32,000 bases of DNA, taken from Candidatus Saccharimonadota bacterium. Lineage in GTDB: Bacteria; Patescibacteriota; Gracilibacteria; BD1-5; UBA2023. How positions within the stretch are numbered: the first letter of the stretch is position 1; each line of letters opens with the position of its first letter. The translations under genes were made by a program, and so were the position numbers. The stretch is from positions 1,251,674 through 1,283,673 of the forward strand of contig JAXLZO010000001.1 of NCBI GenBank assembly GCA_046350815.1, read 5' to 3'. Of this stretch, positions 1 through 32,000 are shown one piece after another. A model generated the notes under the pieces. That model ran no database searches, had not been told where the DNA came from, and worked only from the letters and a program-made list of their open reading frames with translations.

Positions 1-1715
1 GATAAGGCATAATAAGTACCTCATCAATTCGATTGACCATTGCAAATAAGGCTATCATCAGCCACATCTGATGTCCATAAAACATATGCATGTATGGGAT
101 CTAATGAATTTAATTCAGATTTAGTAAGGCTCTTATTTATTATAGGAATAGAATCATTGGGAAGTTTCGTCCATGATAATTCAGCGGTTCATAATTCATC
201 TCTTGGTTTAGATAAATTATACGCGACAGAATCCCGAGCAAACTTCACAGCAACTTCAATAGTAGGAGGCAAAAATACATATATATTTTTGGTTACAGTA
301 TGCTCACCATTGTTGACATCAATACATGTAAAAACATAGGACTTCATTTGACCAATCTTATAATGACGAATCGGATCATACGATCGCTGAATCCATTCTG
401 GTTTAACGGTAAAATTTGGATACTTATCTTGAGGTACAAATCAACCTGTTGCCGTATAAAAAATATGTGTATCTGATGAGCTATTACCAGTCGTTTCATT
501 CAGAGTTGTTGTGCATGATTTCATACCATTGGCCAACAGGCTCACTTGTATTGGCTGACCACTCATAATTTTATCTCATCCAGCTGAAGTTTGCATAGTT
601 ACAGAAAGCTGTGTCCTAATATATAAACTCACATATGCTTGAGATGATACAGTTCTTGTCTCTGATCCTATTCTTTGAGTATGAAAACATTCAAGAATAT
701 AATCTCTTCTTTTATCAGGAGTAACTTGTTCCATTCATATAGGTTGTTTGGATCCACTCCATCAGCCACCCGATGCTTCGCACGTATCTGCATTCGATGC
801 CATCCATACCAATGTTCGGCTCTCTCAGAGATCCATCTCCGTACTCGTCGTACTTCATGTCATACCGAAGAGTATCGTGGGAGTAGTCGGATGGATAACT
901 TCTATTTGCGGCGTACTTCGAACAATACTATCTCCTTGTAGCGACGTGCAAGAGAGAGTGAAGTAGGTACTACTACGAAGTGGACTACTCGAATACGTAC
1001 CTCCCGTAGCACTCACTGCTCAAGATGTATAACTTCCACTTCCTGTGATTCATGAACATGATCTCAGATTTGCACCAGTCCATGTAAGTGCAACAGTCTG
1101 ACCAGAGAATATCTGCGTTGCCGAGACCTCAAATGTTAGGGAAGGTGGTCATGGGATCATCTCTACACGAATAGTCCGATCTCCGGTATTCGTCCCATCC
1201 AATCATACGCAGCTCATAGTATACGTTTGAGAGATGTTGGATGTTACGGAAGGTACAACGATACTCATACTGCTTCTAACACGTAGCAGACTGCCAGAAT
1301 TTGCACCCAAAGAACTTACATCCCAATCCACACGACACGACCGAACATACTGTGGATTCCACGTGATCGTAAAAGTCTCACCTCAGCGAACCACACGGCT
1401 CGGATCGTTATCAAGACGGTTGCCATCGTTATCATTCGCCTGAAGTGTCAGTGTCGGAGAAGGTGGGGTCACCAAATTTTCAAACTTCTCACAAGCAGGC
1501 GTTCCATCATTCGAAAATCCCATCACCACTCCACCCGTCGCACCCATAAGAGAATCACATGAAGAGTTTAAAATCTTCTGAAACTGAGAAACAATGGGAT
1601 TTCACTGAATATTTGATCCAGTTGGATAAGAGATTATCGGTGTTGCAAAAATTGCATTTGAATAAATCAAACTTATAAGAACTATCAATACTGATAAGGA
1701 TAAATATTTATGCAT
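1..1715 (-). CDS. Secreted repeat-rich surface protein with tandem Ig-like/beta-sandwich modules; the C-terminus lies beyond the window start
   Basis: ATG at 1715-1713. N-terminal signal peptide MHKYLSLSVLIVLISLIYSNAIFA. I checked every codon down to position 3 and found no TAA or TAG, and 15 in-frame TGA by my count. Roughly 90-aa modules recur with the pattern ...TW..N..SC...G...Y.L.C. The standard-code track shows no minus-strand ORF here because of the TGAs. Confidence 0.75.
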
Positions 1716-1736
1716 AAAATTAAATATGATTTAAAG

Positions 1737-3830
1737 TTATTTATTAATATAGTTAGGAAAAACATATTTATCAAATTGAGAAAGTGAATTTAAATCATAC
1801 GTGCTTTTAACATAACCAGAAGATGGTCAATAAACAATTCAATTTCGAAACGATCCATGTGTGCTTGTTCAAAATGCATAGCTTCATATAGAAACAATAC
1901 CATTTCAAAGATTAATAGATTGCAGTTTGTTTTCATAAAAAGCTCAATTTCAAATGGACTCAACCCCATTTGGAATTACTACTCATGTTAAGGAATTATT
2001 TGAGAATGCGGATTCACCAATATAACGAATATTATTTCATAATGAAAGTGATTCAAGTCAATTTCCATAGAATGTATATTTTGGAATAGTATATATGTTA
2101 TCTGGAATATTTAGTGAGGATATGTTATTCGCCATAAATGCTCAATCAGACAAAGTAATACTAGGTCGGCTTAAGAGAACTTGATCAACTGATTTAATAT
2201 TATTCAACTTAAATGCATATTGCCTTATCGTTAAAGGCACCAATGAAGGACGTATAATTAATGAAATATTGAATGACGAAGAAAATGCTCTTTCGTCAAT
2301 GAGTTGGACATTAGTTCAAATAGTTACTCATGAAAAATAATTAGCTGCAAACGCTTTTGTTCCGATATATTTAACACTATCTGGAATTACCAAATCTCAA
2401 CTCAAATGTGCACCACGGAATGCTTCTTTTCAAATCCATACAAGACTAGATGGAAGAATGATCGAGTCAAATCATAAAAGGTCAGAAAAAGCATCATCTC
2501 CAATAGAAACAATTGGATATCACTCAACTAACGATGGGAATCTAAGTGTTATGGATGATGCTCCACATAATAAATTCCCATATTGATTTTGTGGCGCAGA
2601 ATCAATATGTACACCAATTGTTGAAGAAGACTTATTGATCCAATAAGAACTCCGACCATCAGTAGGGGAAATGTAATCAACAAAGCTATACGTAAAACAT
2701 CGTGGATCAATAAAACTACACTGACCATCATTACAACTGACCGTAGCACCACCTTGAGCATCATTTTGACATGTCAATCATCCATTTTGAGGTGTTGGAT
2801 TCGTACAGGTACGAGTTTTGGTGCAACTCGTCTGACATGCACCAAAACTTGACCAACCACCAGGAATAGGTGGAGGTGTCACAGTCACTGAAACACTTTT
2901 TTGCATTTGGCGACCAGCATCATCGGAACAAGTGATACGATAGGTGGAAGTTGTTGTTGGATTGATCAAAGCAGATCATGAGGCACTTCCATTGACCGCA
3001 AAGGCATCACTCGTCGTACAGCTCGTGAGATTTCCAGCTTGCCATGCAAGTGTGACTGGATCTCATGGGGCAATATTTGATGGTGTGGCAGTAAAGTTAA
3101 TATACGGATCACTGGAGCCAGGACAGCTACCTGCGGACATCAATGAACTCGCCACAACGCATTTTGGTTTACCATTTGCCTCAAAACCAACAATCACCTC
3201 ATTGCTCGAGCATTTTCCTATTTCTCATCCAAGATTCGAGAGATAGTTACCAAAAATTCCTCATGTAGATTCGCCACCTGGATTCATTGTAGGCCATACA
3301 ATACCACCACCAATTGCTCAGATAGATGCTGTGTTCATTGTCTGAGATACGGTTGATCCATCTGTACCAGAACAAGAGAGAGTATAGGAGCTACCATTCG
3401 CAGGAACATCAATACTTCATCCAGTAGCAGTCGTTGAAATGCCAGAGATAGAACACTGCGTGGTATTCTCAGATGACCAAATCAAACGAATTTTGGATGA
3501 TACAGGACTACTACCAAATGTAAAATCAAGTTTTGGGTAAGAGTTAGTAGCTGGACATAGACCAAAATTTGCTACAGATATGAGTGAGTTTGCATTCGCA
3601 CATTCCTTTATGCCCGTTGCTTTGTTAATAGCGACAAGTACTTTATTTCCATCACATCTCCCGAGAAGATTCTGAAAATATGTCTTGAGTACACCACCAG
3701 GCACCTCTCAAGTGGGTGGATGGTTGGGCCATGAAGTACTCGCGGTTGCTGCAAATGCAATAATACTCATCATAAGGACGACAAGAAAAACGGTACTTAT
3801 TCTTCCTATTATCTGAAAAAAACGCTTCAT
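1737..3830 (-). CDS. Secreted 697-aa protein: signal peptide, Cys-containing beta modules, a thrombospondin type-1-like Cys module, and C-terminal BspA-type (LRR_5-like) leucine-rich repeats
   Basis: ATG at 3830, TAA at 1739-1737. It joins track ORFs 3417-3704, 2778-2969 and 2520-2777, which share one frame. I checked the remainder codon by codon: about 25 in-frame TGA and no TAA or TAG. N-terminus MKRFFQIIGRISTVFLVVLMMSIIAFAA. The C-terminal half has repeats such as IPDSVKYIGTKAF, IPDNIYTIPKYTF and IPNGVESIGNGAF, typical of BspA-like LRRs. Confidence 0.8.
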
Positions 3831-3891
3831 ACAAATATGGAATATACGATCAATATGGAATCATTGTACTGAAGAAAAAAAATGAAACAAT

Positions 3892-3920
3892 AAAAATACG
3901 TGGATATCCACGTATTTTTT
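3892..3920 (-). terminator. Intrinsic terminator downstream of rpoC
   Basis: Perfect palindrome AAAAATACGTGGATATCCACGTATTTTT, a GC-containing stem flanked by A and T runs. It lies 19 nt after the rpoC stop. Confidence 0.7.
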
Positions 3921-3938
3921 ATTGCTATGGGAATAAGA

Positions 3939-6900
3939 CTAAAGGGAAATATATTCATCTTCACCTGCGTCATCAAATGCAGCAACTAATTCACCACTAT
4001 CCAAATCATCATCACCTACCGATTCAATCGCCATAGGACCGTCATAAACGGTTTCTGGAAGATAGTATGGAGTTTCCTCGAGATCTTCTTGACCAAAGTA
4101 TTCACCGACATTTCGATTATTCTGAAAATAATCAAGAGTTGGAATAAGTCGACCAATGATCACATTTTCTTTGAGACCTTCCAGTTTATCAATCTTTCGA
4201 GCTGTTGAAGCCTCAACCAACACACGAACCGTTTCTTGGAACGATGCAGATGAGAGCCAACTTTCCGTAAAGAGAGAAATCTTCGTGAGACCAAGAAGAA
4301 GTCGAGTACCAATTGCCTGACGTTTCTCATCTTGCATGAGATTGTTGTTTTGTTTTTTGAACTCAATTACATCAACAATGTCACCAGGAAAGAATGTTGA
4401 ATCACCAGCATTCGTAATCTTTACCTTTGAGAACATCTGACGAACAATGAGCTCAATATGCTTTGAATTTACCGTCTGACCCTGAGATGCATAGATCTCT
4501 TTGATGTCATTAACAATATAGAGTTCTGTCGAGAGAGGATCAGTAAGTTCCATGAGTCGCTGAAGGTTGATATGTCCTTCTGTCAGTTTGGATCCAACCT
4601 TTACGGATTCCCCTTCTTTCACAAGGATAGAGCGAGATGCATCGATAGAATATTCGATCGTGCGAGGTGCCTCATCAACTATCACAATCGTATGCTTCGA
4701 TACCTCTTGAATGATACCAGTATGCTCAGAGAGGAGTTTACCTTTATGTTCTGTAGATCGAGCAAGTGCTTGACGGGGGTCAATATGAGCTCATTTCTTC
4801 ACAACAACTGAGTATGTATCATCAGGAATATAATATTCATAACGATTCACTTCATCAGCCTTGATAGTCACAATAACAACCTGTCAATCATAGCGAAGTC
4901 CAACGACCTTTCCGGTCAACTCAGACATAACCGCTTCACCCTTTGGTGCGCGTGCCTCAAGAAGTTCTTCTACACGAGTAAGACCCACCGTGATATCACC
5001 ACCTTGTGTCGCAACTCAACCCGAATGGTATGTACGCATCGTGAGCTGTGTACCTGGCTCACCAATAGACTGAGCTGCAATAATACCTACTGGAGTACCC
5101 ATGATCGCTCGAGCATTCGAAGAAAGATCGAGACCATAACATTTTTGACATACACCCTCTGCCGTCTCACAAGTGAGAATCGATCGAACGTGTACCTCAG
5201 GGATCTCATGTTCGTTGAGTATAGCAAGAATTTCCTTCGTAACCAACTCCCCAGATGGAACAAGTACCTGTCCATGAAGCATAATATCACGAGCAACATG
5301 CTTTCCTTTGATTTTATCATCAAATGATTCTCGGAACACAGATTTTGAGAGCTCTCGAGTTACTGTCTCATATTGGAGAGTTCCACAATCTTCTTCACGA
5401 ATGAGAATATTTTGAGCAGCATCGACGAGACGACGTGTCAAATAACCAGATTGTGCTGTCTTGAGCGCCGTATCTGCCTTACCTTTACGACCGGAATGCG
5501 TATTGATAAAATACTCAAGCACTGAAAGACCTTCTTTATAGTTACCCTTAACTGGAAGCTCGATAGTTTTACCAGTTGGAGATGCTACCAATCATTTCAT
5601 TCCACACATCTGAGCAACGTTACCCCAATCTCAACGTGCACCAGAATCAATGAGATTGAAGATGGAGTTTTGTTGATTGAACGATGTTTTCATCTCAGCG
5701 GAAACCTGATTTTTTACGATATTCCACACCTTGATAGTCTGTTCATATCGTTCTTTGTCAGTCAGAAGACCATGCCAGTAAGCACGCTGAATAAGCTTGA
5801 TTTTATCTTCCCCATGTCGTACAAGATCATCTTTGTTTGCCGGAGTAAACATGTCAGATTTTGAGATTGAAAGACCAGAAACAGTTGCATATTTAAAGCC
5901 TGTATTCTTGATACGATCAGCAAAGAATGCTGTCTCTTCGCCACCCTTAAGATCAAAAGATCGAGAGAGAAGTTTTTTAAGAGCTTTTTTATTGAGGGTC
6001 TCATTCACAAACCCAAGAATAGGATCAACAACCTCATTGAACAAGACACGACCATATGTTGTCTCAAGAATCACACCTTCGATACGAATCTTGATAGGCA
6101 TATGGAAGGTAATAACTCCGTTGTCATACGCCATGGTTGCATCTTCCTTGTTCGCAAAAACATGCTTTGCCTCCGTATCTTCATCCTTTCGAGTCAAATA
6201 GTAACACCCAAGTACCATATCCTGTGAAGGTGATACGATCGGTTCACCATTTGATGGATTGAGTATGTTCTTCGAAGTAACCATGAGTCGCGCTGCCTCC
6301 TCCTGTGCTTCATCAGTTATTGGTACATGTACCGCCATCTGATCACCATCAAAATCGGCATTAAACGCACCACAACAAAGTGGATGAAGTTGAATTGCTT
6401 TTCCTTCGATGAGCCGTGGACGGAAAGCTTGAATACCAAGACGATGAAGTGTCGGAGCACGATTGAGAAGTACATGTTTACTTTTAATTACCTCATCAAG
6501 TGCATCCCACACCTCTCGTCCACCATCTTCGATAATTTTCTCGGCCATTTTCGGGGTAAATGCAACTTCATCTTCGATAAGTTTTCCGATAACAAAAGGC
6601 TTGAAGAGCGTGAGTGCCATAGATTTTGGCAATCCACATTCGTTCATCTTAAGTGTTGGACCTACGACGATTACTGAACGACCAGAGTAGTCAACTCGCT
6701 TACCGAGAAGGTTCTGGCGGAATCGACCTTGTTTTCCCTTGAGAATATCTGCGAGGGATTTGAGCTTCTTACGATTTGCTGCAGTGTAACCTGGACGATT
6801 TGAGCGAACATCACCACTAATAAGTGTATCAATAGACTCCTGAAGCATACGCTTCTCATTCTTGAGAATCACATCCGGAGCACCAAGTTGAGTTAGTTTT

Positions 6901-8015
6901 CTCAGACGATTGTTTCGATTGATAACGCGACGATAGAGATCATTGAGATCAGACGAAGCATATCGTCCACCATCAAGCTGAATCATTGGTCGAAGATCCG
7001 GCGGAAGAATTTGGAGTGCTTCAAGGATAAACTGTCCTGGTTTTTGATCAGATTTAAAGAGAGAAGATGCAAGCTTCAATTTTTGAAGAATTTTCTTCTG
7101 ACGAGATTTTGGAGCAGCCTTAAGTTCTGCTTGGTTTTCCGCTATGAAAGCACGAAGATCAATGCGATCAAGGAGAATCTTGATATACTCAGCACCCGTT
7201 CCACCCTTGAATACATGAGGGAACTTATCATAGAGATGACGATAGTCCAATTCACCAATGACGACCGCTGGAGCGAGATCTTTAAGGAGTGTTTTAAGAC
7301 CTTGATACTCTGCTTCAAGTACATCGAGTTGAGACATGAGACCAGCCTCAACTTCTGAGAACATCTTCTTTGTAATCGCTTTTTCCTCGAGTTTGAGTTT
7401 TGCCTCAGAGAGAGATGATTGGATTTTTCTCTGGAGCTCCGTCTTGTGAGTTTTATAGGCATTATCCAAATTTGAAAGAGCCTCATCACGCTTATCCTCA
7501 TAAACATCAGTGATGATATAGCTCGCAAAATAGACAACTTGGTCGAGCTTCTTTGCAGAAACATCAAGAAGAAGGCCAATACGTGAAGGAACGGATTTGA
7601 GATACCAAATATGGACAACTGGAGCCGCAAGTTCAATATGACCAGTTCGTTGGCGTCGCACTTGTGATGTCGTAACCTCTACTCCACAACGCTCACAAAT
7701 CACACCCTTATATCGAATACGCTTGTATTTACCACAAGCACATTCGTAATTCTTGCGAGGACCAAAAATTTGTTCACAGAAGAGACCACCACGTTCAGGT
7801 CTTTGAGTACGATAGTTGATCGTCTCAGAGATGAGAACTTCACCATAGGAAAGGGAGCGAACTTCTTCTTTTGAAGAGAGCCCAATCGCAATACCCACAA
7901 GATTATCAAGAGTTTTACCTGCAGTAATATCCTTCTTACCAGCATTTTTTCCAATCTGTGTATAATCGGTGATTTTATCATTGAGGAGATTCTCGAGAAG
8001 CTTATCAGAAAACAT
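3939..8015 (-). CDS. rpoC: DNA-directed RNA polymerase subunit beta' (1358 aa)
   Basis: It joins track ORFs 5631-8015, 5016-5591 and 3939-4685, plus the interval 4686-5015, all in one frame. Motifs present: Zn finger [23 protein letters not shown], the catalytic loop [12 protein letters not shown], and [15 protein letters not shown]. There are five in-frame TGA, three of them at invariant Gly positions: DSGAR-G (5631-5633), GMK-G-L (5592-5594) and YHSG-G-VA (5016-5018). Confidence 0.97.
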
Positions 8016-8036
8016 AGATTTTGAGAAATGAGAAAA

Positions 8037-11000
8037 CTAAACTTCATCACTGAGTGCACCAGATGTCACTGGAATAGCCGCACTTTCCTTGTTATCACCC
8101 GTTGGAATATCGACTTCAATATCAAATTGTCCCTCAAGGCGTTCGAGCTCATCATAGCGAGCTGCTTGTTCTGTCTCAATCGTTTCAATTCCTTCTTTAT
8201 CGAGAAGTTCGATCTGAAGATTAAGTGCCTGGAGTTCACGCAACAATACATTGAATGATTCTGGCATATTTGGACGCTTGATTGGCTTCTTTTTCACAAC
8301 CGCTTCATATGCCTGAGCACGACCATTGATGTCATCAGACTTGATCGTGAGCATTTCCTGAAGGATATTTGCCGCACCATATCATTCGAGAGCCCACACT
8401 TCCATTTCTCCGAGACGCTGACCACCACGTTGAGCTTTACCTCCGAGTGGCTGTTGTGTTACCATCGAATAAGGACCGACGCTACGAGCATGGATTTTAT
8501 CTTCAACAAGGTGATGAAGCTTGAGCATATAGGTGAGACCTACAAATGTTCTCTCCTTAAATGGTTCGCCCGTTCGACCATCGAAGAGTTGAGTCTTTCC
8601 ATCACTATCAATACCAGCTTCTTCCATAAGCTTATCGATCTGCTCGATAGAGAGACCATTAAGTACTGGGGTCGCTACCTTAATACCGAGTTTTTTCGCT
8701 GCGAGACCGAGGTGTGCCTCAAGAATCTGTCCAATATTCATACGAGATATGACACCATGTGGATTGAGCACAATATCAATAGGCGTTCCGTCTGCCATAT
8801 GTGGCATATCTTCCAGAGCCATGATACGAGAGACAATACCCTTGTTTCCATGACGACCCGCCATCTTATCACCAACCTCAATTTTTCGAGTTTGAGCTAC
8901 GAATACTTTCACTTCTTCGAATACACCGGTCGAGAGACTATCCCCATTCTCACGACGAAGAATATGAACACCGATAACCTTACCAGATGTTCCGATAGGC
9001 ATAACCAGTGATGAATCCTTTACATCCTTTGACTTGTCACCAAAGATAGCTCGAAGGAGACGCTCTTCAGGAGAGAGTTCCATTTCACCCTTTGGAGTAA
9101 CTTTACCAACGAGAATATCACCAGCCTCAACCGTACTACCAACTCGAATAATACCATTTTCATCAAGATTTCGAAGCTTTGTTGCTGATACATTTGGAAT
9201 ATCAGAAGTTGTCTGCTCAGGGCCAAGTTTCGTCTCACGAACATCCATGATGTACTCAGTAATGTGCACTGATGTATAGTAGTCATCCTGCATAACACGA
9301 GAAGAGAGGATGATTGAATCCTCAAAATTATAACCACCCCATGGCATATATGCTACAACGAGATTGCGACCAATCGCAAGTTCACCATCTTCAATAGATT
9401 GACCATCAGCAAGAATATCACCCGGCTCGATTCGCTGACCAGCGGAAACGAGTGGCTTTTGATGAACGAGCATATCATGATTTGATCGCTCAAAAGTCAT
9501 GAGCTCATGAGTCACTTTCTGGCCATTATCATAGATAACAGTGATATGTTTGCCATCTACTCCAATAACTTGTCCATGATCGATTGCCTTGATCACATAC
9601 CCAGAAGCCTCACCAATTTGTCGCTCCATACCAGTACCTACCACCGGCGCCTCAGCACGAATGAGTGGAACTGCCTGTCGCATCATGTTTGTCGCCATTT
9701 CCGCACGAGTTGCATCATCATGTTCCAAGAATGGAATAAGAGAAGATGATTCAGAGAATATTTGCTTTGGAGAGATATCAATATGTGTTACCTGACGAAG
9801 GTGCTCTGTTGTTGCTTCAAAGTGGCGACGAGCAGCTACGCGAGTCTCAAGGAAATTCCCATGTTCATCAACAGGAGCATTTGCCTCCGCAATGATAAGA
9901 TCCTTCTCTTCATATGCATCAAAATACTCAACGGTATCAGTAAGATAGGCTCTCACCCAAAGTTCTTCATGAGGATATCGAGATTTGATCTCCTGCGCAA
10001 TCTCTGCTGTAATGAGCATCTTTTCATCGATAATCATCTCGCCCTTTGCATCCAAGAGAGCCTCTCGAGTCACACGATGTACTGACGATATTCCATCATT
10101 TACGACACTATGACCGAGCTTACGAAATGGAGTTGTAATAAATCCATATTTATCGACGCGTGCATAGCTCGCAAAGTGAAGTACGAGACCGATATTCTGA
10201 CCTTCTGGAGTTGCAAGAGGACAGATTCGACCATACTGTGTCGGATGAATATCACGAACCTCGAACCCAGCACGTTCTCTCGTGAGACCACCATTACCGA
10301 GGGCAGTCAGACGACGCTTGTTAGCAAGCTCTGAGAGGGGATTTGACTGATCCATAAACTGAGAGAGCTGCGAAGTACCAAAGAACTCCTTGAGTACTGC
10401 GGTCACTGGACGAGCATTAATAAATGTACCTGGTGTTGCATCATCAAGTTCAAGTATTGTCATACGATCCTTTGCAATCTTCTCAAGACGAGTAATACCC
10501 ACCTTAATACGATCAGATACAAGCTCACCAACCGATCGCACACGACGATTTTCAAGATGATCAATGTCATCAACACTAAACCCAGGAAGACGAAGCTGAA
10601 GACTCATCAGATATTTGAGACCTTCAACAAGATCTGCAAGTTGCAAGAATCGTCCGTCACCCTCATAGGCAATATCAACACCAAATTTTCTCTTGATCTT
10701 CATACGAGCTACCTCACCAAGATCGAATTTCTTGATATCAAAGAATGTTGTTGCAAAGAGTTGCTCAACACGTTCATCAGTACCAAGATCACCTGGGCGA
10801 ATAAGTTTGTAGAGAGCATAGAGAGCCTCAAGACGAGATTTTGTTTTATCCTTCTCAATAGTCGGACCAATATGTTTCGAGAGAAACTCAGGATTTCCAG
10901 AGAATGCCTGAATAATCTCAGCATCAGATTCAAGTCCATGAGCACGAAGAAGAACCGTAACAGGGATCTTACGCTTCTTGTCGACTTTTACCATAATAGC

Positions 11001-20298: not shown

Positions 20299-21051
20299 GG
20301 GTCTAAACCAGTTACGGGTTATATTGACGAAGTAACTTTAGCACTTCCTTATAAATATCTTTTCATTGAATACGACAATTATATCTGAATTCAGATTCTT
20401 TCAAAAAATAGTAGAAGTAGACTTTCTTGATTCCATTGAATTGAGAGAGTCTTCTTTTGGTATAACTCCAAAATGACTCTATTCAATTAATGTGTTGAGT
20501 TCATCTTGCAAATTCATTTGCTCCGTGATGAACACGGTAGTGTTTCTCATATCCAATATCTACAAGCCCATCATAAGCTCACCATCCATCACTGTTAATC
20601 TCAGACTCTTCTATACGAAGTTTTCATCGAATGATTGGCACGAGAGTCCTTGCTTTTACATCAGGAACTATCTCAGTATATACTTTTCAGTTTCTTTTGA
20701 GTAAACCAAAGACTATTGTCTTCATACCAGCTCACCTTCCTCTCTTTCATCGGACTCTTGTTGGTCAGAAGTAACTCTCATCTATCTCAACATTTCCAGT
20801 CCATATTTCATTCTTTTCTCTCTCACAGAGAAAGGCTATCGCCTTTCTGATATATCTATACCAATCCTGTGTTGTTTTTGGATTGAGACCTGTTAATACC
20901 GCTGTTTTATCTGAAGTAAAATCCAGAGAAAAATATTTCACAATTTCTCTTATTTTTGCATCTCAAATTCGTGATTTTTTCCTATAGGTAGTTTTACTGA
21001 TCATAGAGCCAAGTTTATGGGATAATTTATCCTGTCAACTGGTTTAGACCC
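20299..21051 (-). mobile_element. IS1595-family insertion sequence (753 bp) with 15-bp perfect TIRs and a 7-bp target-site duplication
   Basis: The left TIR GGGTCTAAACCAGTT (20299-20313) is the exact reverse complement of the right TIR at 21037-21051. Direct repeats CAATTTA flank the element at 20292-20298 and 21052-21058. It encodes a single transposase ORF. Confidence 0.85.
20312..21004 (-). CDS. IS1595-family (ISXO2-like DDE) transposase, 230 aa
   Basis: ATG at 21004, TAA at 20314-20312, inside the TIR. I checked every codon and counted 10 in-frame TGA. Family-typical motifs: VEIDESYFG, RGKRGRGAG, KTIVFGLLKRNGKVYTEIV, INSDGWGAYDG, HYRVHHG, HINGIESFWSYTKRRL and ESEFRYN. Several conserved Gly in these motifs are encoded by TGA. 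Confidence 0.85.
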
Positions 21052-21344
21052 CAATTTATAGATATGCCTTGAAGCTTATTGAGTAAACATGTTAGTAATG
21101 TTTTAATTTGTAAATTCACATAACTAAATTTATAATCACTAGGCGAAAACAAAGAATACAAAAGATGAACAGTAATCAAAATAGAAAGTATTACCCCAAA
21201 GAAAAATCACGCCCTATCTAGATCACTTCCACCAGAGTTGCTGAGAGCCATTGTGAGAAGAAAAGGAAATCCTACTAAAGAAAATACGAATAATCCAAAG
21301 CAAAAAATAAGAACTACTTTAATTACGGTGGGTATTTTTCACAT
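21052..21344 (-). pseudogene. 5' fragment of the membrane-protein gene split by the IS1595 insertion
   Basis: ATG at 21344. It reads MGKIPTVIKVVLIFCFGLFVFSLVGFPFLLT...GFFFGVILSILITVHLLYSLF...LLNKLQGISIN. The present reading frame runs on into the IS and stops at 21029-21027. Confidence 0.6.
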
Positions 21345-21385: not shown

Positions 21386-22096
21386 TTACCCTACTATTCC
21401 TCTCATGCTCTCAAGAAATGCTCGAACATTTTCGGGTATTTCTTGAGGCATTTTTGCTTCAAGTGTCACGATGAGATCACCTATTTTTCCATTGACTACC
21501 CTCCCCTTTCCAGCAACTTTGAGCTTGGTTCCTGGCTTCGTATTTGGCTTAATCGTGATTGTGAGGTGTTTACCATAGACCGTCTTGATATCAATCTTTG
21601 TACCGAGAATAAAATCAAAGAACGGGATTTCACGAGTCTCTATCACATCAATATTTTCACTCTCTTCATAGTACTCTGGTTGTTTCTTTTGGCGAGATTC
21701 TGTACGTGATGTGTAAGATTGGGTGCCACCAAACTGTGAGAATAAATCACCAAAGTCAAAATCCATTCATGAGCTCTGACTATGGGATCCAGGTCGTGCA
21801 CCACCAAATTGAGAGAAGATATCTTCAAATCCTCAAAATCCCTGTGAAGATCCGCCCTGAAATCCACCAAATGCACCTTCAGCAGATCCGAATTGATCAT
21901 AATTCTTTTTCTTCTTTTCATCTGATAACACTTGATATGCTTCATTGACACTTTTGAATTTTTCCTCCGCATCTTTCGATCCTTTATTGCGATCAGGATG
22001 ATACTTCATCGCCATTTTCTTATACGCCTTCTTGATCTCGTCACTCGATGCTGTTTTTGGAATCCCGAGTGTTTCATAATAATTTTTTTGTGTCAT
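21386..22096 (-). CDS. Minimal J-domain co-chaperone (DnaJ/CbpA-like, 236 aa) lacking the zinc-finger domain
   Basis: Track ORFs 21833-22096 and 21386-21766 share a frame and are joined through two TGA. J domain: [32 protein letters not shown]. Gly/Phe-rich linker: [26 protein letters not shown]. There is one C-terminal beta domain ([24 protein letters not shown]...[12 protein letters not shown]) and no CxxCxGxG repeats. Confidence 0.85.
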
Positions 22097-22230: not shown

Positions 22231-24450
22231 ATGAAAAATCTTGTCATCGTCGAGTCTCCCGCAAAAGGAAAAACCATTGAAAAATACCTTGGAAAAGACT
22301 TTGTAGTAAAAGCATCAGTAGGACACATTCGAGATCTCCCCGCTAAGGGTTTTTGAGTAGATCTCGAGAATAATTTCGAACCAACCTACGAAATCTCAGA
22401 TGGCAAAAAAAAGGTAGTGACCGAACTTAAAAAACTCGTCAAGCAAGCTGAGAAAGTCTGGATTGCTACCGATGAAGACCGTGAAGGAGAAGCGATCGGA
22501 TGGCACCTTTGTCAAGCACTTGGACTTGATCTTGAGACAACTGCTCGTATTGTCTTTCATGAGATTACCAAACCAGCAATCACGCATGCAATCGAACATC
22601 CGAGAACGATTGATATTGATCTCGTCAACGCACAGCAAGCTCGTAGAATCCTCGATCGTATTGTTGGGTACAAAGTATCACCAGTACTCTGGGAGAAAAT
22701 TCAACGTGGCCTGTCCGCATGACGAGTTCAATCCGTTGCAGTACGACTTATCGTTGAACGAGAGAGGGAAATTCTTGCATTCGTTAAGGAGGAATCTTGG
22801 AAGATTCGAACCAATCTCAAAACAACAAAAGAAGAAAATATTATTGCAGAACTCACAAAAATCGGTGGCAAAGCAAAAACGCTCAAAGATATTGTCAGCG
22901 TACAAAAATATCTTGCCACTCTCTGAGTCGCAGTAGCAAATCTCGAGGCAAAAGAGGATAAAAAAGGAAATCTCTCGATTGATCTGAATCTTGTTACACC
23001 TTTTTCGCTTGTATCTCAAGAACAAAAAGCATCGAAACGTTCACCGGGAGCGCCATTTACTACCTCAACTCTCCAACAAGAAGCATCTCGAAAGCTAGGT
23101 TATAGCGTGTCACAAACCATGACGATAGCGCAGATGCTCTACCAAAATGGACACATTACTTACATGCGTACCGACTCCGTCAATCTCTCCGATCTCGCGA
23201 TCAGTGCTTGCTCAAAATATATCGAAGAGCAATTTGGAAGTGAATACAGTGTCAAATGAGGAAGAAAATATAAAACAAAACAATCGAGCGCTCAAGAGGC
23301 ACACGAAGCAATACGCCCAACACACATGGAAAAATCATGAGAAGAAATTGGACTGGAATGAAGTGACGCACGACTCTATCGACTCATACGAGAACGAACT
23401 ATTGCATCACAAATGCGAGATGCAGAAGTGGAAACAACAACCTATCAATTTGCACCGGAAGTTCAAAAGGAGGATATTTGGATAGCAAAAGGTGAAGTCA
23501 TCAAGTTTGATGGGTTTATGAGACTCTATACAGAAGGAACGGATGACGAAGAGACAAGTGAAGACAGTACGCGTCTTCCCGCTCTGAACAATGGAGATAT
23601 ACTCAATTCTGAAACACTCAAAGCCATACAACATTGGAGCAAACCACCAGCACGATATACCGAAGCTCTTCTGGTTAAAAAACTTGAAAGTGAAGGGATC
23701 GGTCGTCCATCAACCTATGCCCCAACTATAACCACTATTATCGACCGTGGTTATGTAGAAAAAGAAGAAAAACGCCTCAGGCCTACAGATATTGCCATGA
23801 CAGTGACTGATTTTCTCTCAAAGTATTTTGAGCAAATGATGGATTATAAGTTCACAGCAAATGTCGAAGAACAATTTGATACCATTGCAGAAGGAAAGCT
23901 CGAATGGCAGAAAATGCTTACCACTTTCTATACGGGACTTGAAAAACAGATTGAAGGATCTGGGGCAATCAAAGGGAAGATTGAAGAGAAAGTGGGTAGA
24001 AATTGTCCAGAATGTGGCAAAGAACTTGTCTATAAATTCAGTCGCGGTGGAAAGTTCGTAGGATGTTCCGGATATCCAGAGTGTAAATATCTCGAATCCG
24101 TCGTAAATCCAAAACTTCAAGCACTCAAAGACAAATACGACGGACTCCCTTGTGAAGCTGGTGGAACTATTATTGTTCGTACCGGAAGATTTGGACCGTT
24201 TCTCTCATCAAGTCTCTATCCGGAAGTAAAATGGATAGGGAAAATCAGCGACTTCGAAGGGGCAGAACTCACTGCAAAGTATGGTTGACACAAATGTGAT
24301 AAATGTTGAGAAGGTATTATGAAAGTAAAGTTCAGTAAAAAATGACCATTTCTCGCATGTAGCAGATATCCAGAGTGTAAAAATGCAGAGAATCTCCCAA
24401 AGGAAGCTCTCGAAAAATCCCCAACTCCCGAAGATAGCGAAGAAAAGTAA
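22231..24450 (+). CDS. topA: DNA topoisomerase I (739 aa)
   Basis: ATG at 22231, TAA at 24448-24450. Nine in-frame TGA join track ORFs 22417-22722 and 23413-24288 with the gaps I read. TOPRIM motifs: [15 protein letters not shown] and [11 protein letters not shown]. Also [19 protein letters not shown], with the TGA at 22720-22722. Active-site motif ITYMRTDS. C-terminal Zn ribbons: CPECGKEL...CSGYPEC and CDKCGEG...CSRYPEC. Confidence 0.95.
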
Positions 24451-24906: not shown

Positions 24907-25392
24907 ATGTCTACAGTAAAAGAATATCAAGCGATTTTTACTACTCGAGCTCTCATTATTCATGAAAATAAACTTCTCATTGTTCGTCATTCAAATCCAC
25001 ATTCAACATACTATGCGCTCCCAGGTGGCAAGCTCGAATGAGACGAATCACTCATTAATGGACTCAAAAGAGAGATTTATGAGGAACTCAATATCAATGC
25101 CGAGATTGGACCTCTCGCACTTGTTCATGAATTTATACACCCAATATATGGCGGACGAAGAATCGAGTTTTTCTACACTATTCAAAATACTCACGAGTTT
25201 CTTACACTTCAAAATCAAGAGAACAATACATCATCTCACGCATTCGAAATTTCAGAAATTCTCTGGGTAGATATTGCAGATATAGCAAATGGTACTATCG
25301 ATCTCAAGCCCTATTGTCTGAGAGATCTCTTCAAAAGTGACCAGCTACAAAATATACAATCTTTCAATCCACACTATGTGAGTCAATACTAA
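24907..25392 (+). CDS. Nudix hydrolase (161 aa)
   Basis: ATG at 24907, TAA at 25390-25392. Nudix box GGKLE-G-DESLINGLKREIYEELNI, with the Gly at 25039-25041 encoded by TGA. Confidence 0.85.
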
Positions 25393-26167
25393 AACTTCTC
25401 TCGTACTAGGCGGTGGTGGTATCCGATGATGTGCACACATTGGCGTCTATAAAAGAATGTGTGAACTCTGAATACAACCAGATGAAATTGTTGGAACGAG
25501 TATTGGTGCAATTGTTGGTGCATTTATAGCGTTTGGACTCTCTGCGGATGATATGGAAAATATTATCAAGAGTATTCCGACCACCATTCTTCTCTCACCA
25601 GATTTGAAGACTGGGCTTCTCTCTCAAAAGGGTATGATCAAGTATTTCTCAAAGTTTCTTGGCACATCCGCACGAATAGAAGATGCTCATATACCACTCA
25701 AGATTGTCGTAACAAACTTTGATACAGGAGAGAAAGAGATCCTCACCTCATGACCTCTCCTCCCCGCTATTGCAGCCTCAGCTGCTATACCAAGCCTCTT
25801 TACTCCAGTTCTTATTGATAAGTATCGTTATATTGACGGTGGGATTGTCGACAATCTTGCTGTCAGTGAAGCAAGCTACGAGCATATCATTGCAGTCAGT
25901 GTAGTGGGTGGCAGCATCATGAAGAAATCAAAGAGAAAAAAGGCTTCCGTTTTCTGAATCAACATCTTTACGCCATATCGTGCCTACGAAGATCTCATTC
26001 AAGCGTTCAAGATCATGCTTATGCAAAATGAACTCGCAAAATTTTGAGAGAAAAGAGAGAAAATAACCCTAATTAAACCCAATGTTGATGGAGTCAATCT
26101 CCTCCAAATCAACAAAGCACTTTATGCAATGAGGCAAGGATATATTGCAGGAAAAGAAAGTCTATAA
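25376..26167 (+). CDS. Patatin-like phospholipase (263 aa)
   Basis: The ATG at 25376 overlaps the Nudix gene by 17 nt. Oxyanion motif LGGGGIR-G (TGA at 25427-25429), nucleophile elbow GTSIGA and catalytic Asp motif YIDGGIVDN. Track ORF 25553-25753 is the central piece. Confidence 0.85.
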
Positions 26168-26189
26168 AACTCCGCTTAAGCGGAGTTTT
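26166..26189. terminator. Bidirectional intrinsic terminator
   Basis: Perfect palindrome AAAACTCCGCTTAAGCGGAGTTTT, between the patatin stop (26167) and the convergent stop at 26193-26195. Confidence 0.75.
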
Positions 26190-26192
26190 ATA

Positions 26193-28637
26193 TTAAAATT
26201 GATCAATATAAGTTGTAAATATATACATATCAAATGCATTTCAATATGTATTTTTCACATATCCAGATGCTGGACCGTATATAGTTCCAGTTCCAGGATC
26301 AGAAAATTGGTGATCAAATGTTTGAACTCCTAAGTGAGTAATCGTATTTGGAAGCGTAACAGATGTAAGGTTATTATAAGCAAATGCTAAGCTACCTATA
26401 GTAGCCATCCCTTGAGGAATAACAACCGTAGTAAGTTGATTGTTTGCGAATGCATAAAATCATTCATACAGTCATCAAATAAATGTGGTGCCAGGAGCAA
26501 ATGATAGCGATGATATTTGATTATAACGAAAGGCTTCACTTCATATTGAAGCTCCAGTTGACAATAGCACAAGATCAGTAATTTGATTATTCGCAAATGC
26601 TCGATCTCAAATACTCGTTACGCTTGATGGAATCGTCAAATGAGTAAAATTATTATACTGAAAAGCTCACCCAGAAACACCTCATCAAATACTCGTTACA
26701 CTTGATGGAATCGTCAACGAAGATATCTGATTATTTACAAAAGCTCATTCGGCGATACCCACAACGCCTCATGGAATCGTCAACGAAGATAGCTGATTAT
26801 TTCGAAAACCATTATATGGAATGTAGAGCAGATTTTGTGATAAAGTAAGAGAACTGATTTGATTAAAGGCAAATGCATAACTACCGACCTGATCGATACT
26901 ATCAGGAAGATCAAGTATTGAGATATTGTTTCCATAAAATGCATAACTACCGATATTTGTAATTCCATTCGGTATAACAGCACTGTTGAGACCTTTATTT
27001 TGAAAAACCGAAGAACTAATAGCCGTCACATTAACTCATCAAATGTTACACGGAATAACAACATCAGATGGACCATTATATGCTGTAATAGTTTTCGTGG
27101 AGGCATTAAATGTAAAATAACTTTCATCTGTCACATTTGATGCATTGGTACACACCACTTCTGGAGGTGGAAGACTAATCTCCAGTTCATGTTGAGACCC
27201 CACATAAAAATCAGTTGAACTCGTTGATCCTGTACAACCATAGGGAGTAACATCGAGAAAGCTTGACTGTGGAGTACAAGCTATACTCGCATATGGAGTC
27301 TCAAATGCTATATTCGATGGCATATTAGTACTGCCAGCAAGAATAGTAACGGGAGATTGATAGTTGCTATCTAGAATGAATGTATCAATCACATATCCAT
27401 CCACCGTATCATCTATGAGTGACCCAGGAGTAATCGTCGTAATAGTCACTCCATAAGTTGCATAGAGAGATATAGTAAGAGGCCCTATATATCCATAGTA
27501 GGTATTCCCCATAATACTATACTCTCCCATAGTAAGTATATGACTTACCGGTCATCCTCCTCCACCTCCAGAATCACCACCCCCAGAACCTGATCCACTC
27601 CCCGTACCACTATTCATCCCCAAAAGACTCTTCTCATCAAAGCTTCCATTCTTCAGAGCATTGAGTGATCCAGTAGAAATAGAGGTAGAGAAATATTCAT
27701 CATTTCAAGAAGATCAAACAAGAATATCATAATTACTACTATCACTCAAAGAGATATCTCTACTTCCTGTACCCGTTACTCCATTCTGAAGAGGTTGCTT
27801 ACTTCCCTTGGAGAGAAAGATTCAGAGTCTATCTCCTGCAGAGTAGGGATATCTGGAGGAGAGATCAACAGTACTACTGTCGAGTGCATAGGCAGTACTG
27901 AAGGGATACATTATATCTCAGGCGTACGCCTGAGATACTTTCATTCCTTCCATTGTTCCTTCTGTTGCTTCACGAAGTGAAGCAGAAAGCATACCTCAAA
28001 AGTCTGAGAAGGTTCCAAGAAGAGACTGCGAAGCAGTCTCTTGTATTCCTTTCAATTGTCCTCCAAACTTATCCACTCCAACTTCTTGATTCCCCCTGTT
28101 CAGATTATCATCTCCTCTTCCACTTCATCCACCATCCAATCATCCTTCATTCATTCCAATCTTCTCATTTCCATGAAACTTTCTTCCAGCAATCTCTATA
28201 GTCCTCTCAAATCTTGGATTCTCAAGGTATGCAAGAAACTGTGCTTGGTCGTAGTGTTGATTGACTCGATAGGTATAGGGTATATTGTCTTTGGGATCAA
28301 AGATCTTATCTGATCCATACCCAAGAGGATTCACAATACTCGTACTCATGAATCCTTGGTATCCAATGAATGTTCCACTGACAGTGAGAGATACACTATC
28401 TGCTATGGGAGTAGGAAGCTTTCGAAGTTGTGCACTCGTAATCCTTGCACTCTCTGACAATGTCTTAATATCACTAATTCTCTTTCCATCTCTTGCTACT
28501 GATGACTGATGACTCATCACTACAAACCCTATCACGGATAGTATAGAGAGTATGGTGATGACTACTATGAGTTCGGTGAGGGTGAAGGCGGAATGTTTCT
28601 TGGAGAGGGAAGCAATCTTATTACGTATATTTTGTAT
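26193..28637 (-). CDS. Giant modular type IV pilin-like protein: prepilin N-terminus, pilin-like globular region, Gly/Ser linker, beta domain, C-terminal BspA-type LRRs (~814 aa; start codon uncertain)
   Basis: It joins track ORFs 28140-28535, 27039-27530 and 26769-27029, which share one frame. I checked all gaps codon by codon: 21 in-frame TGA. TAA at 26195-26193. N-terminus ...SLSKKHSA/FTLTELIVVITILSILSVIGFVV, a class III signal-like sequence. No ATG, GTG or TTG lies between the upstream in-frame TAA (28643-28641) and the FTLTE motif; only ATA (28637, 28628) or ATT (28616) are available. LRR units include IPNGITNIGSYAF, LPDSIDQVGSYAF, IPSSVTSIG and IPQGMATIGSLAF. Confidence 0.7.
26607..26810. 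repeat. Near-identical DNA copies of LRR-unit coding sequence
   Basis: 26607-26639 and 26685-26717 are 32/33 identical with a 78-nt offset. 26705-26744 and 26771-26810 are about 36/40 identical with a 66-nt offset. Confidence 0.8.
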
Positions 28638-28678
28638 ATGTTAAAATAATGGGGATATGGAGCATTTAGATATAAGTT

Positions 28679-30940
28679 CTAATTTAATCATGTAAGAGGT
28701 GGTTCTATATGGAGTGTGTTGTAACCATTAGTACGATCCCCCCAACAAGCCACACTATTGTCATTTTTTAAAGCACAAGTATGGTACTCTCAAGCATCGA
28801 TGTCAACTACATTACTCAATCATACTGGAACATTTGTCTGTCCATATCAGTTGTCACCCCAACATATAACATTTCATCATGTAATCGCACATGCGTGAGA
28901 GTCACCAACAGTTACCTTAGTAATACCAGTAGTATTTGGTATTGTCCATGGTGCTACCCACTGATTTCAGTTAGCCTTGCGTCACCAACACATCACAGAT
29001 TGATCATCATGACGTATACCACAGGTATCATACCAGCCAGCAGATATAAAATCGAATGCAAATCAAGGTGCTTCGTTTTCACTTCACCAGCAAACCACTC
29101 AACCTCTATTATCGAGAGCACAGCTATGTTCTGCTCATGTTGTTACCTGAACAAAATCAGTTCGTGAAGTTATTTCAGCTGGAACATCTTGCCCATAACA
29201 TTTTATACTACCGTTTGAATTCAGTGCACATACATGTTGCCAATTGATATCTATGCCTGATTCATTGCTAAAATATCCAGTTGGTATCTCTTCAATTTCA
29301 TCCCAGTTATTATACTCATTGTCATACCCATCACTTCACCAGCAAGAAACATTTCCATCGCTTGTGCGAACACATCCGTTCCATCATCCAACATCAATAT
29401 GTGTTGCGTTTGTGATTCATGGTGGAAAATTTTTTGCTCCGTACCAATTGTAACCCCAGCATATAATTCATCCGGTGGAGCTAATTCCACAAGTATGATC
29501 TACTCATGCTGCAATACGTTTTTCTGTTACAATTGGAGAAAAATGAATGACTGGTGGTGGCGGAGGTGGAGGATCAATCTGAATTTGAATATAAGGAAAT
29601 AACAATGATGAGGAGATTGAAACGGTTTGCCCGTTGGGTGTTATATTAGATTGGCTTTTTTGTTCAAAACTTGTTCAATAATCAGTATCCGTTGTCGCCC
29701 ACCATGTTCCCAAATCCCCAAGAAGTACATTTTCATCAAAATCAAGATAGGTAAGATGGGTAAGATTCTCGAGAGAATCAGGAACAGTATTTATATCTAA
29801 GTTATGCCAGAAAGATAGTTCTGTTAAATTTGATAAATTTCCAATAAACTCAGGTATGATAGAGATTTGATTGTAAGATAGATAGAGTTTTTGTAGCCCA
29901 GTAAGAGATTGAATCTCTAATGGAACTACTGTGAATGAATTATTTCCAAGATCAAGTATTTCTACATCCCGCAACTTCGCAACAGCATTTGGAATATCTG
30001 TAAGCCCCAGATTATTCCATTGAAGATTGGTCATCGCACACCAATCTTCAGCTGTATAACTCTCTCACTTTACAGCGTTGAGATCAATTACTTCTTGACT
30101 TGTGAGTCCACATGTTGGATCATTCGATCCACCACCTGATCCCGACCCGCTACCACTACTCGATCAACTTGATGCTACGATCGTAGCGCCTGCAAGCAAG
30201 GTATCAAGTCCGTTGTTCGTCTTGAGAGCAGTAGTTCCAGTTCCTTCGATAGCAGAAAGTTTAAGGGATTCATTCACATAGAGGAAATAGTTCGTATCTA
30301 TACCAGATGATCCAAGATCAAGAGTGCCTGTATTGGTATTTGTATTGTAGATTAATGCATTTGCTGGCTCATTGGTGGTACTACTTAAAATAATACCGAG
30401 CTTATCTCCATAGACATAGGGAACTCTCTTGGAGAAATCAGTTGCTTGAGCAGTATTGATTCAAAGAAAGGTAGAAAAATCAGCAAGAAGAATATCACCT
30501 CGAGAGATAGATGACGAGCCATTTTCAAGATAGGCAAGATACTGACTCTTGTCCCTTGCTTGTCCTACCCGGTAGATATAGGGAGTATGGTCTTGAGGAT
30601 CATAGACACTATCTGAGTATCCATAGGCTTGTGCTACGTATCATGACATATATCCTTGCCATCCAATATCGATACCACTTACGGTAAGTGCAATAGCTTG
30701 ATCTGGGAGAGGAAGCATTCTCTGTTGTACTGCCTGAAGCTGACTCGCATCATAGATATTCTTAATGCTCGCCAAACGATTTGAATCACGAGCAGATACG
30801 GTAGCATCATTCATCATAATAAATGCTACCAAACCAAGGATGGAGAGGATGGTGATGACAATGATGAGTTCTACGAGGGTGAATCAGGAGTGTTTCTTTG
30901 AGAGAGAAAATATAACTCTTGAGCTACTTAAGTCTTTCAT
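28679..30940 (-). CDS. Giant modular type IV pilin-like protein: canonical prepilin signal, pilin-like region, Gly/Ser linker, classic LRR domain, Pro-rich linker, 7-blade RCC1-like beta-propeller (753 aa)
   Basis: ATG at 30940, TAG at 28681-28679. I checked every codon outside track ORFs 30641-30832 and 29675-30034: 23 in-frame TGA and no TAA or TAG. Leader MKDLSSSRVIFSLSKKHS-G/FTLVELIIVITILSILGLVAF, with the -1 Gly encoded by TGA (30884-30886). LRR units such as LRDVEILDLGNNSFTVVPLEIQSLTGLQKLYLSYNQISIIPEFIGNLSNLTEL. Linker PPPPPPP. Seven blades of the form HTCGI..GGIICWG, ending in GDNGYGQTNVP and YHTCALKNDNSVACWG. Confidence 0.85.
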
Positions 30941-31004
30941 AAATAGAATTGATAAGATAAAATACTATTTATTTTGTTTCATCATACTTTCAGCAGAAAT
31001 GCAA

Positions 31005-31033
31005 AAAATATCACGGATGAAGTGATGTTTCAA
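31005..31033 (-). promoter_or_regulatory. Candidate promoter for the pilin-like gene pair
   Basis: On the minus strand: TTGAAA (31033-31028), a 17-nt spacer, then TATTTT (31010-31005). It lies about 65 nt upstream of the ATG at 30940. The match is weak. Confidence 0.25.
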
Positions 31034-31074
31034 GTAGACGAATATTTTGCATAGTTTGTGGTACATTTTAGAGT

Positions 31075-32000
31075 TTATGCAAAAACCTCTTCTGCTATCG
31101 TTTTTTCGATACTTTGAGAAAATATCTCAAGTGAATAAAAGAGATATTTGAGATTATTCACATAAAGTATGACGTCTGGGTCCATCATCCAAGTATTGAG
31201 TACTTTAAGAAGCTCTCAGGGTGAAATGATAGATGAAGAAACAGAGTAAGACTTTATACTATCAGAAAAAACCACAATTACATTTGAAGCAAAAACTTCG
31301 TATGTTATCCATATTTTTGAGGAAGCATTCATGTTATCAATAGACTCTTGCCACATATTGCTATGAGATATAATATGAGGCGTAGAAAAAGGAACCAGTG
31401 TTTTATCCTCAATATTCTTAACTCAAGGAGTAGATGTACTTGATGAAAATTTTTTCAAAAGTGAATGAAACTCCATCTTCGTAAGAAACTGTACAAAAGA
31501 TGGTAGTTGCAGACGATGAATTGATCAGATATAAGCATTTTCACTCGAAAACTTGACGTCTAAATCTATCATAACTGTTGCTAAATCAAGTGAGAGAAAA
31601 GCATTGTCACGTTCTGCACACAATACACTTTGCGTCTTCTCAGGCAACTCTCATAGATGCTCATATATTTGACTCAAATGTCCAAAGCGAGTAATAAGAT
31701 CAGCTGCTTTTTTCGGACCAAAACCTTTGATACCAGGAATATTATCCGAACTATCTCAGACAATAGCAAGATAGTCACGGACATACTTGCTCCCAACACC
31801 AAATTTCTCAACACACTCTTTTTCACGGGCAACGATCTTTTTCATGCCATCAACAATCTTCACATGCTCAGAGAGCACTTGATACATATCTTTGTCGCTT
31901 GAAAGAAGAGATATTTCACACTCACTTGATGAATATTGATGAGCAATACTTGCCATCACATCATCTGCTTCATGTCATTCGAGTATAATCATCGGTATTT
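31075..32000 (-). CDS. Pol I-type 5'-3' exonuclease (FEN-like) with a vestigial 3'-5' exonuclease-like tail; the N-terminus lies beyond the window end, and no polymerase domain follows
   Basis: The frame is open from 32000 to TAA at 31077-31075. I checked every codon below track ORF 31756-31959. Motifs: LE-G-HEADDVMASIA, SSDKDMYQVL, DYLAIV-G-DSSDNIPGIKGFGPKKAADLI. The C-terminal ~170 aa (…KIWITYEVFA…ILYVNNLKYLFYSLE…) resembles a degenerate 3'-5' exonuclease domain that lacks the DxE carboxylates. Confidence 0.8.

Follow-up and report, generated by a model that had tools for sequence, protein, structure and literature searches.

The 32-kb window analysed here, which is the whole stretch of 32,000 nucleotides from contig JAXLZO010000001.1, has a G+C content of 39% and carries 18 genes that together cover 91% of its length when TGA is read as a sense codon; the meaning of this codon is the subject of this report. 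Among these genes are rpoC (3939-8015, minus strand; 1358 amino acids; TAG stop; PDB matches to RpoC at E=0), rpoB (8037-11612, minus strand; 1191 amino acids; TAG stop) and topA (22231-24450, plus strand; 739 amino acids; TAA stop; PDB match to TopA at E=6e-150), all of which become long open reading frames (ORFs) once TAA and TAG are taken as the sole stops. There are five in-frame TGA codons in rpoC (5631-5633, 5592-5594, 5016-5018, 4884-4886 and 4791-4793), one in rpoB (8382-8384, in the context VWALE-x-YGAAN) and nine in topA, at residues 42, 164 (22720-22722), 232, 343, 370, 377, 686, 693 and 705, so that two lie inside the C-terminal zinc ribbon of TopA (CDKC-x...KK-x-PFLAC) and another lies four residues upstream of it. 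Under translation table 11 the same DNA yields just 16 ORFs of at least 120 amino acids and rpoC is broken up. An earlier note, made from the letters of this DNA, had claimed that the essential genes rpoB, rpoC and topA are interrupted under the standard code and regain their full length on read-through of TGA; this is borne out, and UGA in frame within conserved genes, a hallmark of table 25, is found in all three.

In-frame TGA occurs 170 times among 9729 codons and is present in every one of the 18 genes; if it encodes glycine, it makes up 21% of the glycine codons. None of the genes contains an internal in-frame TAA or TAG, TGA stands at no gene end, and the 17 genes that are closed within the window stop at TAA (13 genes) or TAG (4 genes), in agreement with what the earlier note had said of the genes it closed. 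When the 18 genes are cut at each TGA, they fall into 188 pieces with a median length of 26 amino acids. These counts bear on the possibility that the standard code applies and that the TGA codons represent real stops, selenocysteine, sequencing errors, marks of pseudogenes or programmed read-through. Such an explanation can point to table-11 gene calls for the DNA of this window in public collections, and to GenBank table-11 TopA fragments of a close relative, but it has to accommodate the presence of TGA in all genes, including three essential ones, as well as indispensable domains that lie downstream of TGA, such as the TopA zinc ribbon and the C-terminal half of RpoC. In addition, the identical sequence is found in independent assemblies. 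The organism is also present in SRR26348419, SRR26348420 and SRR26348422. Together with the comparisons to relatives and to protein families given below, these observations leave the standard code with a negligible probability.

The residue that TGA specifies was approached through its sequence context and through orthologues from bacteria that use the standard code. Seven positions at which TGA had been reported were all found to carry TGA in the frame and context described: 5631-5633 (DSGAR-x), 5592-5594 (GMK-x-L) and 5016-5018 (HSG-x-VA) in rpoC, 22720-22722 (LSA-x-RVQS) in topA, 25039-25041 (GGKLE-x-DE) in the gene for a Nudix hydrolase, 25427-25429 (GGGGIR-x) in the gene for a patatin-like phospholipase, and 30884-30886 (KKHS-x-FTLVE) in the gene for a pilin-like protein. 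GTDB representative genomes were scanned with the N-terminal part of RpoC, which yielded one close relative and 79 distant loci (42-51% identity); the latter come from ordinary bacteria carrying rpoB and rpoC and served as a standard-code reference set, to which RpoB and RpoC of the window, with X placed at each TGA, were aligned by tblastn. By this comparison, the TGA at 5631 is opposite Gly in 77 of 79 orthologues, that at 5592 in 79 of 79, and that at 5016 in 76 of the 77 with a residue at this column, a gap being present in one more. The remaining two TGA codons of rpoC (4884 and 4791) fall in a variable insertion region, where Gly is the commonest residue at both positions.

Alignments to proteins of known structure agree with these columns. 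The TGA codons at TopA residues 42 and 164 are opposite Gly in the E. coli and M. tuberculosis enzymes (PDB alignments), and the one that follows CxxC in the last zinc ribbon (residue 693) is opposite Gly in E. coli TopA. Similarly, a 5'-3' exonuclease of the type found at the N terminus of Pol I (31075-31998, minus strand; 5' end past the window; PF02739 and PF01367) has six TGA codons, two of which, at residues 8 and 81, are opposite Gly in the exonuclease domain of Taq polymerase (PDB, E=6e-23). The claim that TGA falls on invariant glycines fails for the Nudix codon at 25039, which is at a variable position.

A further set of columns came from a short Lyase_1 protein of 376 amino acids (16694-17824, plus strand) that matches argininosuccinate lyases (ASLs) and delta-crystallin in the PDB (E ~1e-55) and contains six TGA codons, with first bases at 16754, 16877, 17339, 17387, 17420 and 17441. 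This protein is ASL-like without the C-terminal domain and has Gly in place of the Arg of the SDRDF motif, and its full-length homologues are common in metagenomes. A metagenome scan recovered 80 such loci (42-52% identity); in 76-77 of them the gene is free of in-frame TGA, and these were used as standard-code controls. In these homologues, GGN codons occupy residue 21 in 70 of 76, residue 62 in 40 of 76, residue 216 in 50 of 77 and residue 232 in 75 of 77.

Twelve TGA columns from the 79 RpoB/RpoC and 76 short-lyase orthologues were combined in a log-odds score, in which amino acid frequency vectors were used as emission probabilities and compared with background. Glycine scored +38.6 bits, the next residue, Ala, -26.5 bits, and Trp -73.5 bits, so that glycine leads by 65 bits over Ala and by 112 bits over Trp. 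The last value is relevant to the proposal that TGA encodes tryptophan (table 4), the assignment found in Mycoplasmatales and in a number of insect endosymbionts. This proposal shares with a glycine assignment the observation that TGA is clearly a sense codon, and pipelines at JGI and Logan have translated these genes with Trp at TGA, yet Trp is the residue of the standard-code orthologues at none of the 12 columns.

Codon pairing with Gracilibacteria relatives provided a second test. The relatives were a Candidatus Gracilibacteria metagenome-assembled genome (MAG), JBAZVV010000030.1 (hereafter L003), a 63-kb JGI contig that is syntenic with the window and whose TopA is 88% identical (hereafter L083), and two further Gracilibacteria genomes (L085 and L086); the last three were reached by exact-protein look-ups. 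Codon alignments were restricted to real genes and to columns in which the six neighbours on each side were at least 60% identical, which left 92 columns in which at least one side, the window or the relative, had TGA. Opposite TGA stood a GGN codon in 59 of these columns (35 GGA, 14 GGT, 6 GGG and 4 GGC), TGA itself in 26, another codon in 7 and TGG in none. Mutational proximity does not explain this pairing because 24 of the GGN partners are two nucleotides away from TGA, while the one-step neighbours CGA, AGA, TCA, TTA, TGT, TGC and TGG never occur as its partners in the 92 columns. A codon-pair likelihood based on the substitution frequencies of these alignments places Gly ahead of Ser by 293 bits and ahead of Trp by 427 bits. 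Since TGA is mostly either kept in relatives or replaced by GGN, the pattern indicates purifying selection on a glycine and not decay, which argues against the standard code; the absence of TGA-TGG pairs argues against tryptophan.

Internal repeats of single proteins lead in the same direction, as GGN and TGA alternate at one and the same repeat position. In a pilin-like protein with leucine-rich repeats (LRRs) and RCC1 repeats (28679-30940, minus strand; 753 amino acids; PF07963, PF13540 and PF13855; 23 TGA), the glycine position of the RCC1 CW-G repeat is encoded by three GGN and three TGA codons. The corresponding position of the BspA LRR_5 repeat, I-G-xx-AF, has five of each, and in a BspA-type LRR_5 protein of 697 amino acids (1737-3830, minus strand; PF13306, 139 bits; 25 TGA) the I-G-x-x-A-F position has three of each.

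The third test used Pfam profiles. A composite of the Pfam-domain segments (1403 amino acids with 33 TGA codons) was scored with G, W, A, C, S, R or L at every TGA, and the scores were totalled for the ten families that all variants matched; for the remaining 13 residues, the orthologue log-odds and the codon-pair likelihoods provide the comparison. The composite reached 794.6 bits with G, followed by 767.0 with A, 761.7 with S, 760.5 with R, 736.9 with C, 733.5 with W and 731.8 with L, so that Trp falls 61 bits, and Cys, a proxy for selenocysteine, 58 bits short of Gly; the latter deficit counts against selenocysteine as a standard-code explanation of the TGA codons. For example, RNA_pol_Rpb1_4, which covers the DSGAR-G site of RpoC, was reported at 30.2 bits with G and otherwise only with C, at 20.8 bits. 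Likewise, the Patatin profile scored 72.5 bits with G and no more than 68.7 with the other residues tried; the matching protein, a patatin-like phospholipase of 263 amino acids (25376-26167, plus strand; Pfam Patatin), contains six TGA codons, including the one in the GGGxRG motif.

A table of codons at the conserved columns of rpoB and rpoC was standard for all well-sampled codons, rare codons with four or fewer such columns being uninformative, and TGG alone fills the conserved Trp columns (6 of 6), which upholds the earlier statement that Trp is still encoded by TGG. Taken with its deficits in all three tests, this leaves the tryptophan assignment with only a minute chance of being correct.

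Several observations weigh against a glycine assignment and need to be set beside the evidence above. Half of the 12 orthologue columns (6/12) are without strong Gly conservation, five of them being variable and one a conserved Ala. The latter is the single TGA of rpoB (residue 1077), which is opposite Ala in 65, Gly in 9 and Ser in 1 of the orthologues from other phyla; the codon is GGT in L003, the closest Gracilibacteria relative. In the short lyase, residue 243 is mostly Ser and residue 250 mostly Asn among the standard-code homologues. Two Pfam families score slightly above G with other residues, namely Lyase_1 with A, S or R and NUDIX with W, A or S. The TGA concerned in the Nudix hydrolase (24907-25392, plus strand; 161 amino acids; Pfam NUDIX), at 25039-25041, is the only one in this gene; it is the fourth X of GX5E in the Nudix box, where E. 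coli MutT presumably has Met, and it is kept as TGA in L083. Finally, no tRNA gene was found in the 32-kb window with ARAGORN and Rfam, and ARAGORN found six tRNA genes in all in related loci, among them a set of 85 (~0.9 Mb), none of the six having a UCA anticodon.

One candidate counter-example was considered and dropped. When the short lyase is compared with argininosuccinate lyases in the PDB, the TGA at residue 232 is opposite the conserved R of SDRDF and that at residue 250 opposite the conserved S of HLSR; Arg and Ser are each one nucleotide step from TGA. The conflict at residue 232 disappears within the protein's own family of ~375 amino acids, where, as noted above, nearly all standard-code members have Gly. 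Read within that family, residue 232 is consistent with Gly, and residue 250, which is variable, is uninformative.

With these points taken into account, orthologue columns, codon pairing and the Pfam composite, which are independent of each other, all favour Gly over every alternative. We therefore consider it very probable, at about 97%, that UGA in this window is sense and encodes glycine (translation table 25) and that UAA and UAG are its sole terminators, as the earlier note had proposed for the window as a whole. By analogy with what has been published on the clade, UGA would be read by a dedicated tRNA-Gly whose anticodon is UCA and which is charged by glycyl-tRNA synthetase, and release factor 2 (prfB) would have been lost, so that nothing would terminate at UGA.

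Since further codons are predicted to have changed meaning in related bacteria, the arginine codons CGA and CGG were examined as well. CGA and CGG are predicted to encode Trp in Absconditabacteria, and CGG to do so in some Gracilibacteria (Shulgina and Eddy, PMC8629427), raising the question of whether table 25 is combined here with a second reassignment in which CGA, CGG or both are read as Trp. The low frequency of CGG (13 of 9729 codons) would fit such a change, and so would a CGA at residue 387 of TopA (23389-23391): the Trp of LIW-(E/K)R, otherwise invariant at this residue, is present in 117 of 120 relatives and in both E. coli and M. tuberculosis. CGA is, however, common (94 codons) and stands at Arg in 19 of 19 conserved columns of rpoB and rpoC, and the codon at TopA residue 387 is CGT in L083. 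Recoding of CGA to Trp at this residue can therefore be ruled out, and because L083 has CGT there, the site is best seen as a true Trp-to-Arg replacement. As for CGG, its partners in relatives are Arg codons in eight of nine well-flanked columns and never TGG; conserved orthologue columns contain no CGG, so that its meaning is weakly tested. CGG thus appears to behave as Arg in these alignments, and the change to Trp described for Absconditabacteria is not seen in the window, a statement that is weakly tested for CGG; a second reassignment is accordingly regarded as very improbable.

Although TGA is present in every gene, its use among glycine codons is uneven. It accounts for 6 of the 195 glycine codons (3%) of rpoB and rpoC (3939-11612) compared with 164 of 610 (27%) outside these two (Fisher p = 1e-15); genes for surface and hypothetical proteins have a share of ~30%, and the transposase of an insertion element described below has 50%. 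The rpoB and rpoC genes of L003 are likewise poor in TGA, with two and three codons, respectively. One tentative explanation, which we hold to be possible and not the likelier outcome, is that UGA, as a glycine codon of this organism, carries a cost and is not fully on a par with the others. Decoding by tRNA-Gly(UCA) could be slow or error-prone, for instance because of wobble cross-talk with UGG or of residual termination, and selection might then purge UGA from highly expressed genes and let it build up in genes that are accessory, mobile or code for surface proteins. Codon-usage bias of the ordinary kind would produce this distribution as well, and the two are not told apart by the evidence. 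If UGA is disfavoured in highly expressed genes, the depletion in rpoB and rpoC is what would be expected, and it offers a mildly new angle on this code.

The insertion element is of the IS1595 family (20293-21057) and spans ~765 bp, with terminal inverted repeats of 21 nt (90% complementary) at its ends. Its transposase ORF (20312-21004, minus strand; PF12762, 95 bits) contains the motif RVRxKRGRxAG, confirming the motif that had been pointed out in this protein, and has ten TGA codons. Because these ten codons, half of its glycine codons, must be read as Gly, the transposase is predicted to be functional only in a host that uses code 25. No counterpart of the element was found at the matching position of the syntenic contig L083.

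The RCC1-containing protein described above is one of two adjacent genes on the minus strand whose products have a methylation leader of the type IV pilin kind at the N terminus, KKHS-[G/A]-FTLxEL; the other (26193-28640; ~811 amino acids; PF07963 and PF13306; 21 TGA) is a fusion of this N_methyl leader to BspA LRR_5 repeats. In the 28679-30940 protein, the -1 Gly of the leader is encoded by TGA (30884-30886). In the 26193-28640 protein, the -1 cleavage position is Ala (GCC), and its orthologue in L083 has an ATG start and TGA (Gly). The start codon of the window gene is uncertain, as neither ATG, GTG nor TTG occurs between the upstream TAA and the leader (28580-28640), where only ATA and ATT could serve as starts. 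The two pilin-like fusions and the third LRR_5 protein (1737-3830) may be pilus-tip or surface adhesins.

Among the remaining genes, a hypothetical secreted repeat protein lies at the left edge of the window (3-1715, minus strand; start at 1715, 3' end off the window; 15 TGA; no Pfam match), and further hypothetical proteins are encoded at 11791-14148 (plus strand; 785 amino acids; 15 TGA), at 14778-15389 (minus strand; 203 amino acids; 2 TGA) and at 15396-16028 (minus strand; a membrane protein of 210 amino acids with one TGA and an orthologue on L083). In addition, there are a Peptidase_C39_2-like protein (14141-14743, plus strand; 200 amino acids; PF13529, 27 bits; 2 TGA), a hypothetical lipoprotein-like protein (17915-19780, minus strand; 621 amino acids; 20 TGA) and a DnaJ-like protein (21386-22096, minus strand; 236 amino acids; 2 TGA), whose translation shows a J-domain with HPD and whose orthologue on L083 matches PF00226 and PF01556. 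The Nudix and patatin genes lie on the same strand and share 17 nt (25376-25392), an arrangement that is called identically in Logan contig L087. In L083, positions 1-4070 contain an rpoB that is called as two genes (778 and 365 amino acids), part of which is only 47% identical to the rpoB of the window; these features point to a frameshift or to misassembly of the contig.

The affiliation of the window was assessed from its RpoC and TopA. RpoC is 75% identical to that of the Candidatus Gracilibacteria MAG JBAZVV010000030.1 and at most 51% identical to all other loci, and among the best 120 matches of TopA those that are named are nearly all Gracilibacteria. Judged by these matches, the window comes from the chromosome of a Candidatus Gracilibacteria bacterium (BD1-5 type, GTDB class JAEDAM01).

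A code in which UGA is glycine was reportedly predicted for this lineage by Wrighton in 2012 and by Campbell and Rinke in 2013, and table 25 (the Candidate Division SR1 and Gracilibacteria code) is said to rest on Campbell et al. 2013, Rinke et al. 2013 and Hanke et al. 2014. Proteomics of a BD1-5 bacterium recovered 97 peptides that are unique to UGA-Gly and three that are unique to UGA-Trp (PMC4032931), and Codetta assigned UGA to Gly in 13 of the 15 Gracilibacteria and all 6 Absconditabacteria analysed (PMC8629427). In line with the machinery proposed above, prfB was detected in no BD1-5 genome (PMC6851277), and a passage that summarises Campbell 2013 gives tRNA-Gly(UCA) as charged by glycyl-tRNA synthetase (PMC13293708). 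GTDB has the users of table 25 in class JAEDAM01, and some NCBI 'Gracilibacteria' genomes use table 11; NCBI's choice of table follows the taxon label, which is wrong for some of these genomes (gTranslate preprint).

Public annotations of these genes differ. TopA of the window is identical to GenBank MFO0764414.1, from a Candidatus Gracilibacteria MAG, which has Gly at nine of nine TGA positions, and therefore the genome has already been annotated with table 25. The Logan copy of the same TopA has Trp at all nine positions (table 4), TopA of the JGI relative is also translated with Trp (table 4), and Logan assemblies list rpoB as fragments of 1076 and 105 amino acids (table 11). TopA fragments of 93 and 64 amino acids stand in GenBank under the label Candidatus Peribacteria bacterium (MCB9804298.1, MCA9378772.1 and related entries) and end at a TGA of the full-length protein (residue 343 in the window; a TGA-derived Trp in sequence P0003). 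A relative in the 90% cluster of P0003 appears to have been annotated with table 11 in GenBank, and its taxonomic label is possibly wrong. The earlier note had judged the code to be established and had warned that a standard-code pipeline would miscall the region, and both the literature with MFO0764414.1 and the table-11 fragments in public databases agree with it.

The choice of code decides every annotation in the window: table 11 turns 18 genes into 188 fragments, table 4 gives full-length proteins with 170 wrong tryptophans, and table 25 alone is right. Versions of these or closely related genes made with each of the three tables are held in public databases. The result adds nothing new to biology, as UGA = Gly in the clade dates from 2013 and proteomics has verified it; its value is practical, because NCBI's table follows taxon labels that are sometimes wrong and it is useful to confirm the code from the sequence itself.

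Compared with known systems, the window shows no difference in kind from table 25. Both have UGA as a sense codon for Gly, UAA and UAG as the sole stops and UGG as Trp, as well as a low to moderate G+C content (0.39 here) and a Gracilibacteria/BD1-5 lineage. Table 4, in which UGA is Trp, is used by Mycoplasmatales, Hodgkinia, Zinderia, Nasuia, Stammera and some Eggerthellaceae. It resembles the code of the window in that UGA has been captured as a sense codon and in that genes undergo the same fragmentation under table 11, so a test of coding density cannot separate table 4 from table 25; the two differ in the amino acid, which here is Gly and not Trp, and the table-4 translations from JGI and Logan carry the wrong Trp. 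The variant code of the Absconditabacteria, a sister clade, shares with the window both UGA as Gly and the rarity of CGG, but it is unlike the window in its arginine codons, since CGA is abundant here and stands at Arg in every conserved column, and CGG pairs with Arg codons.

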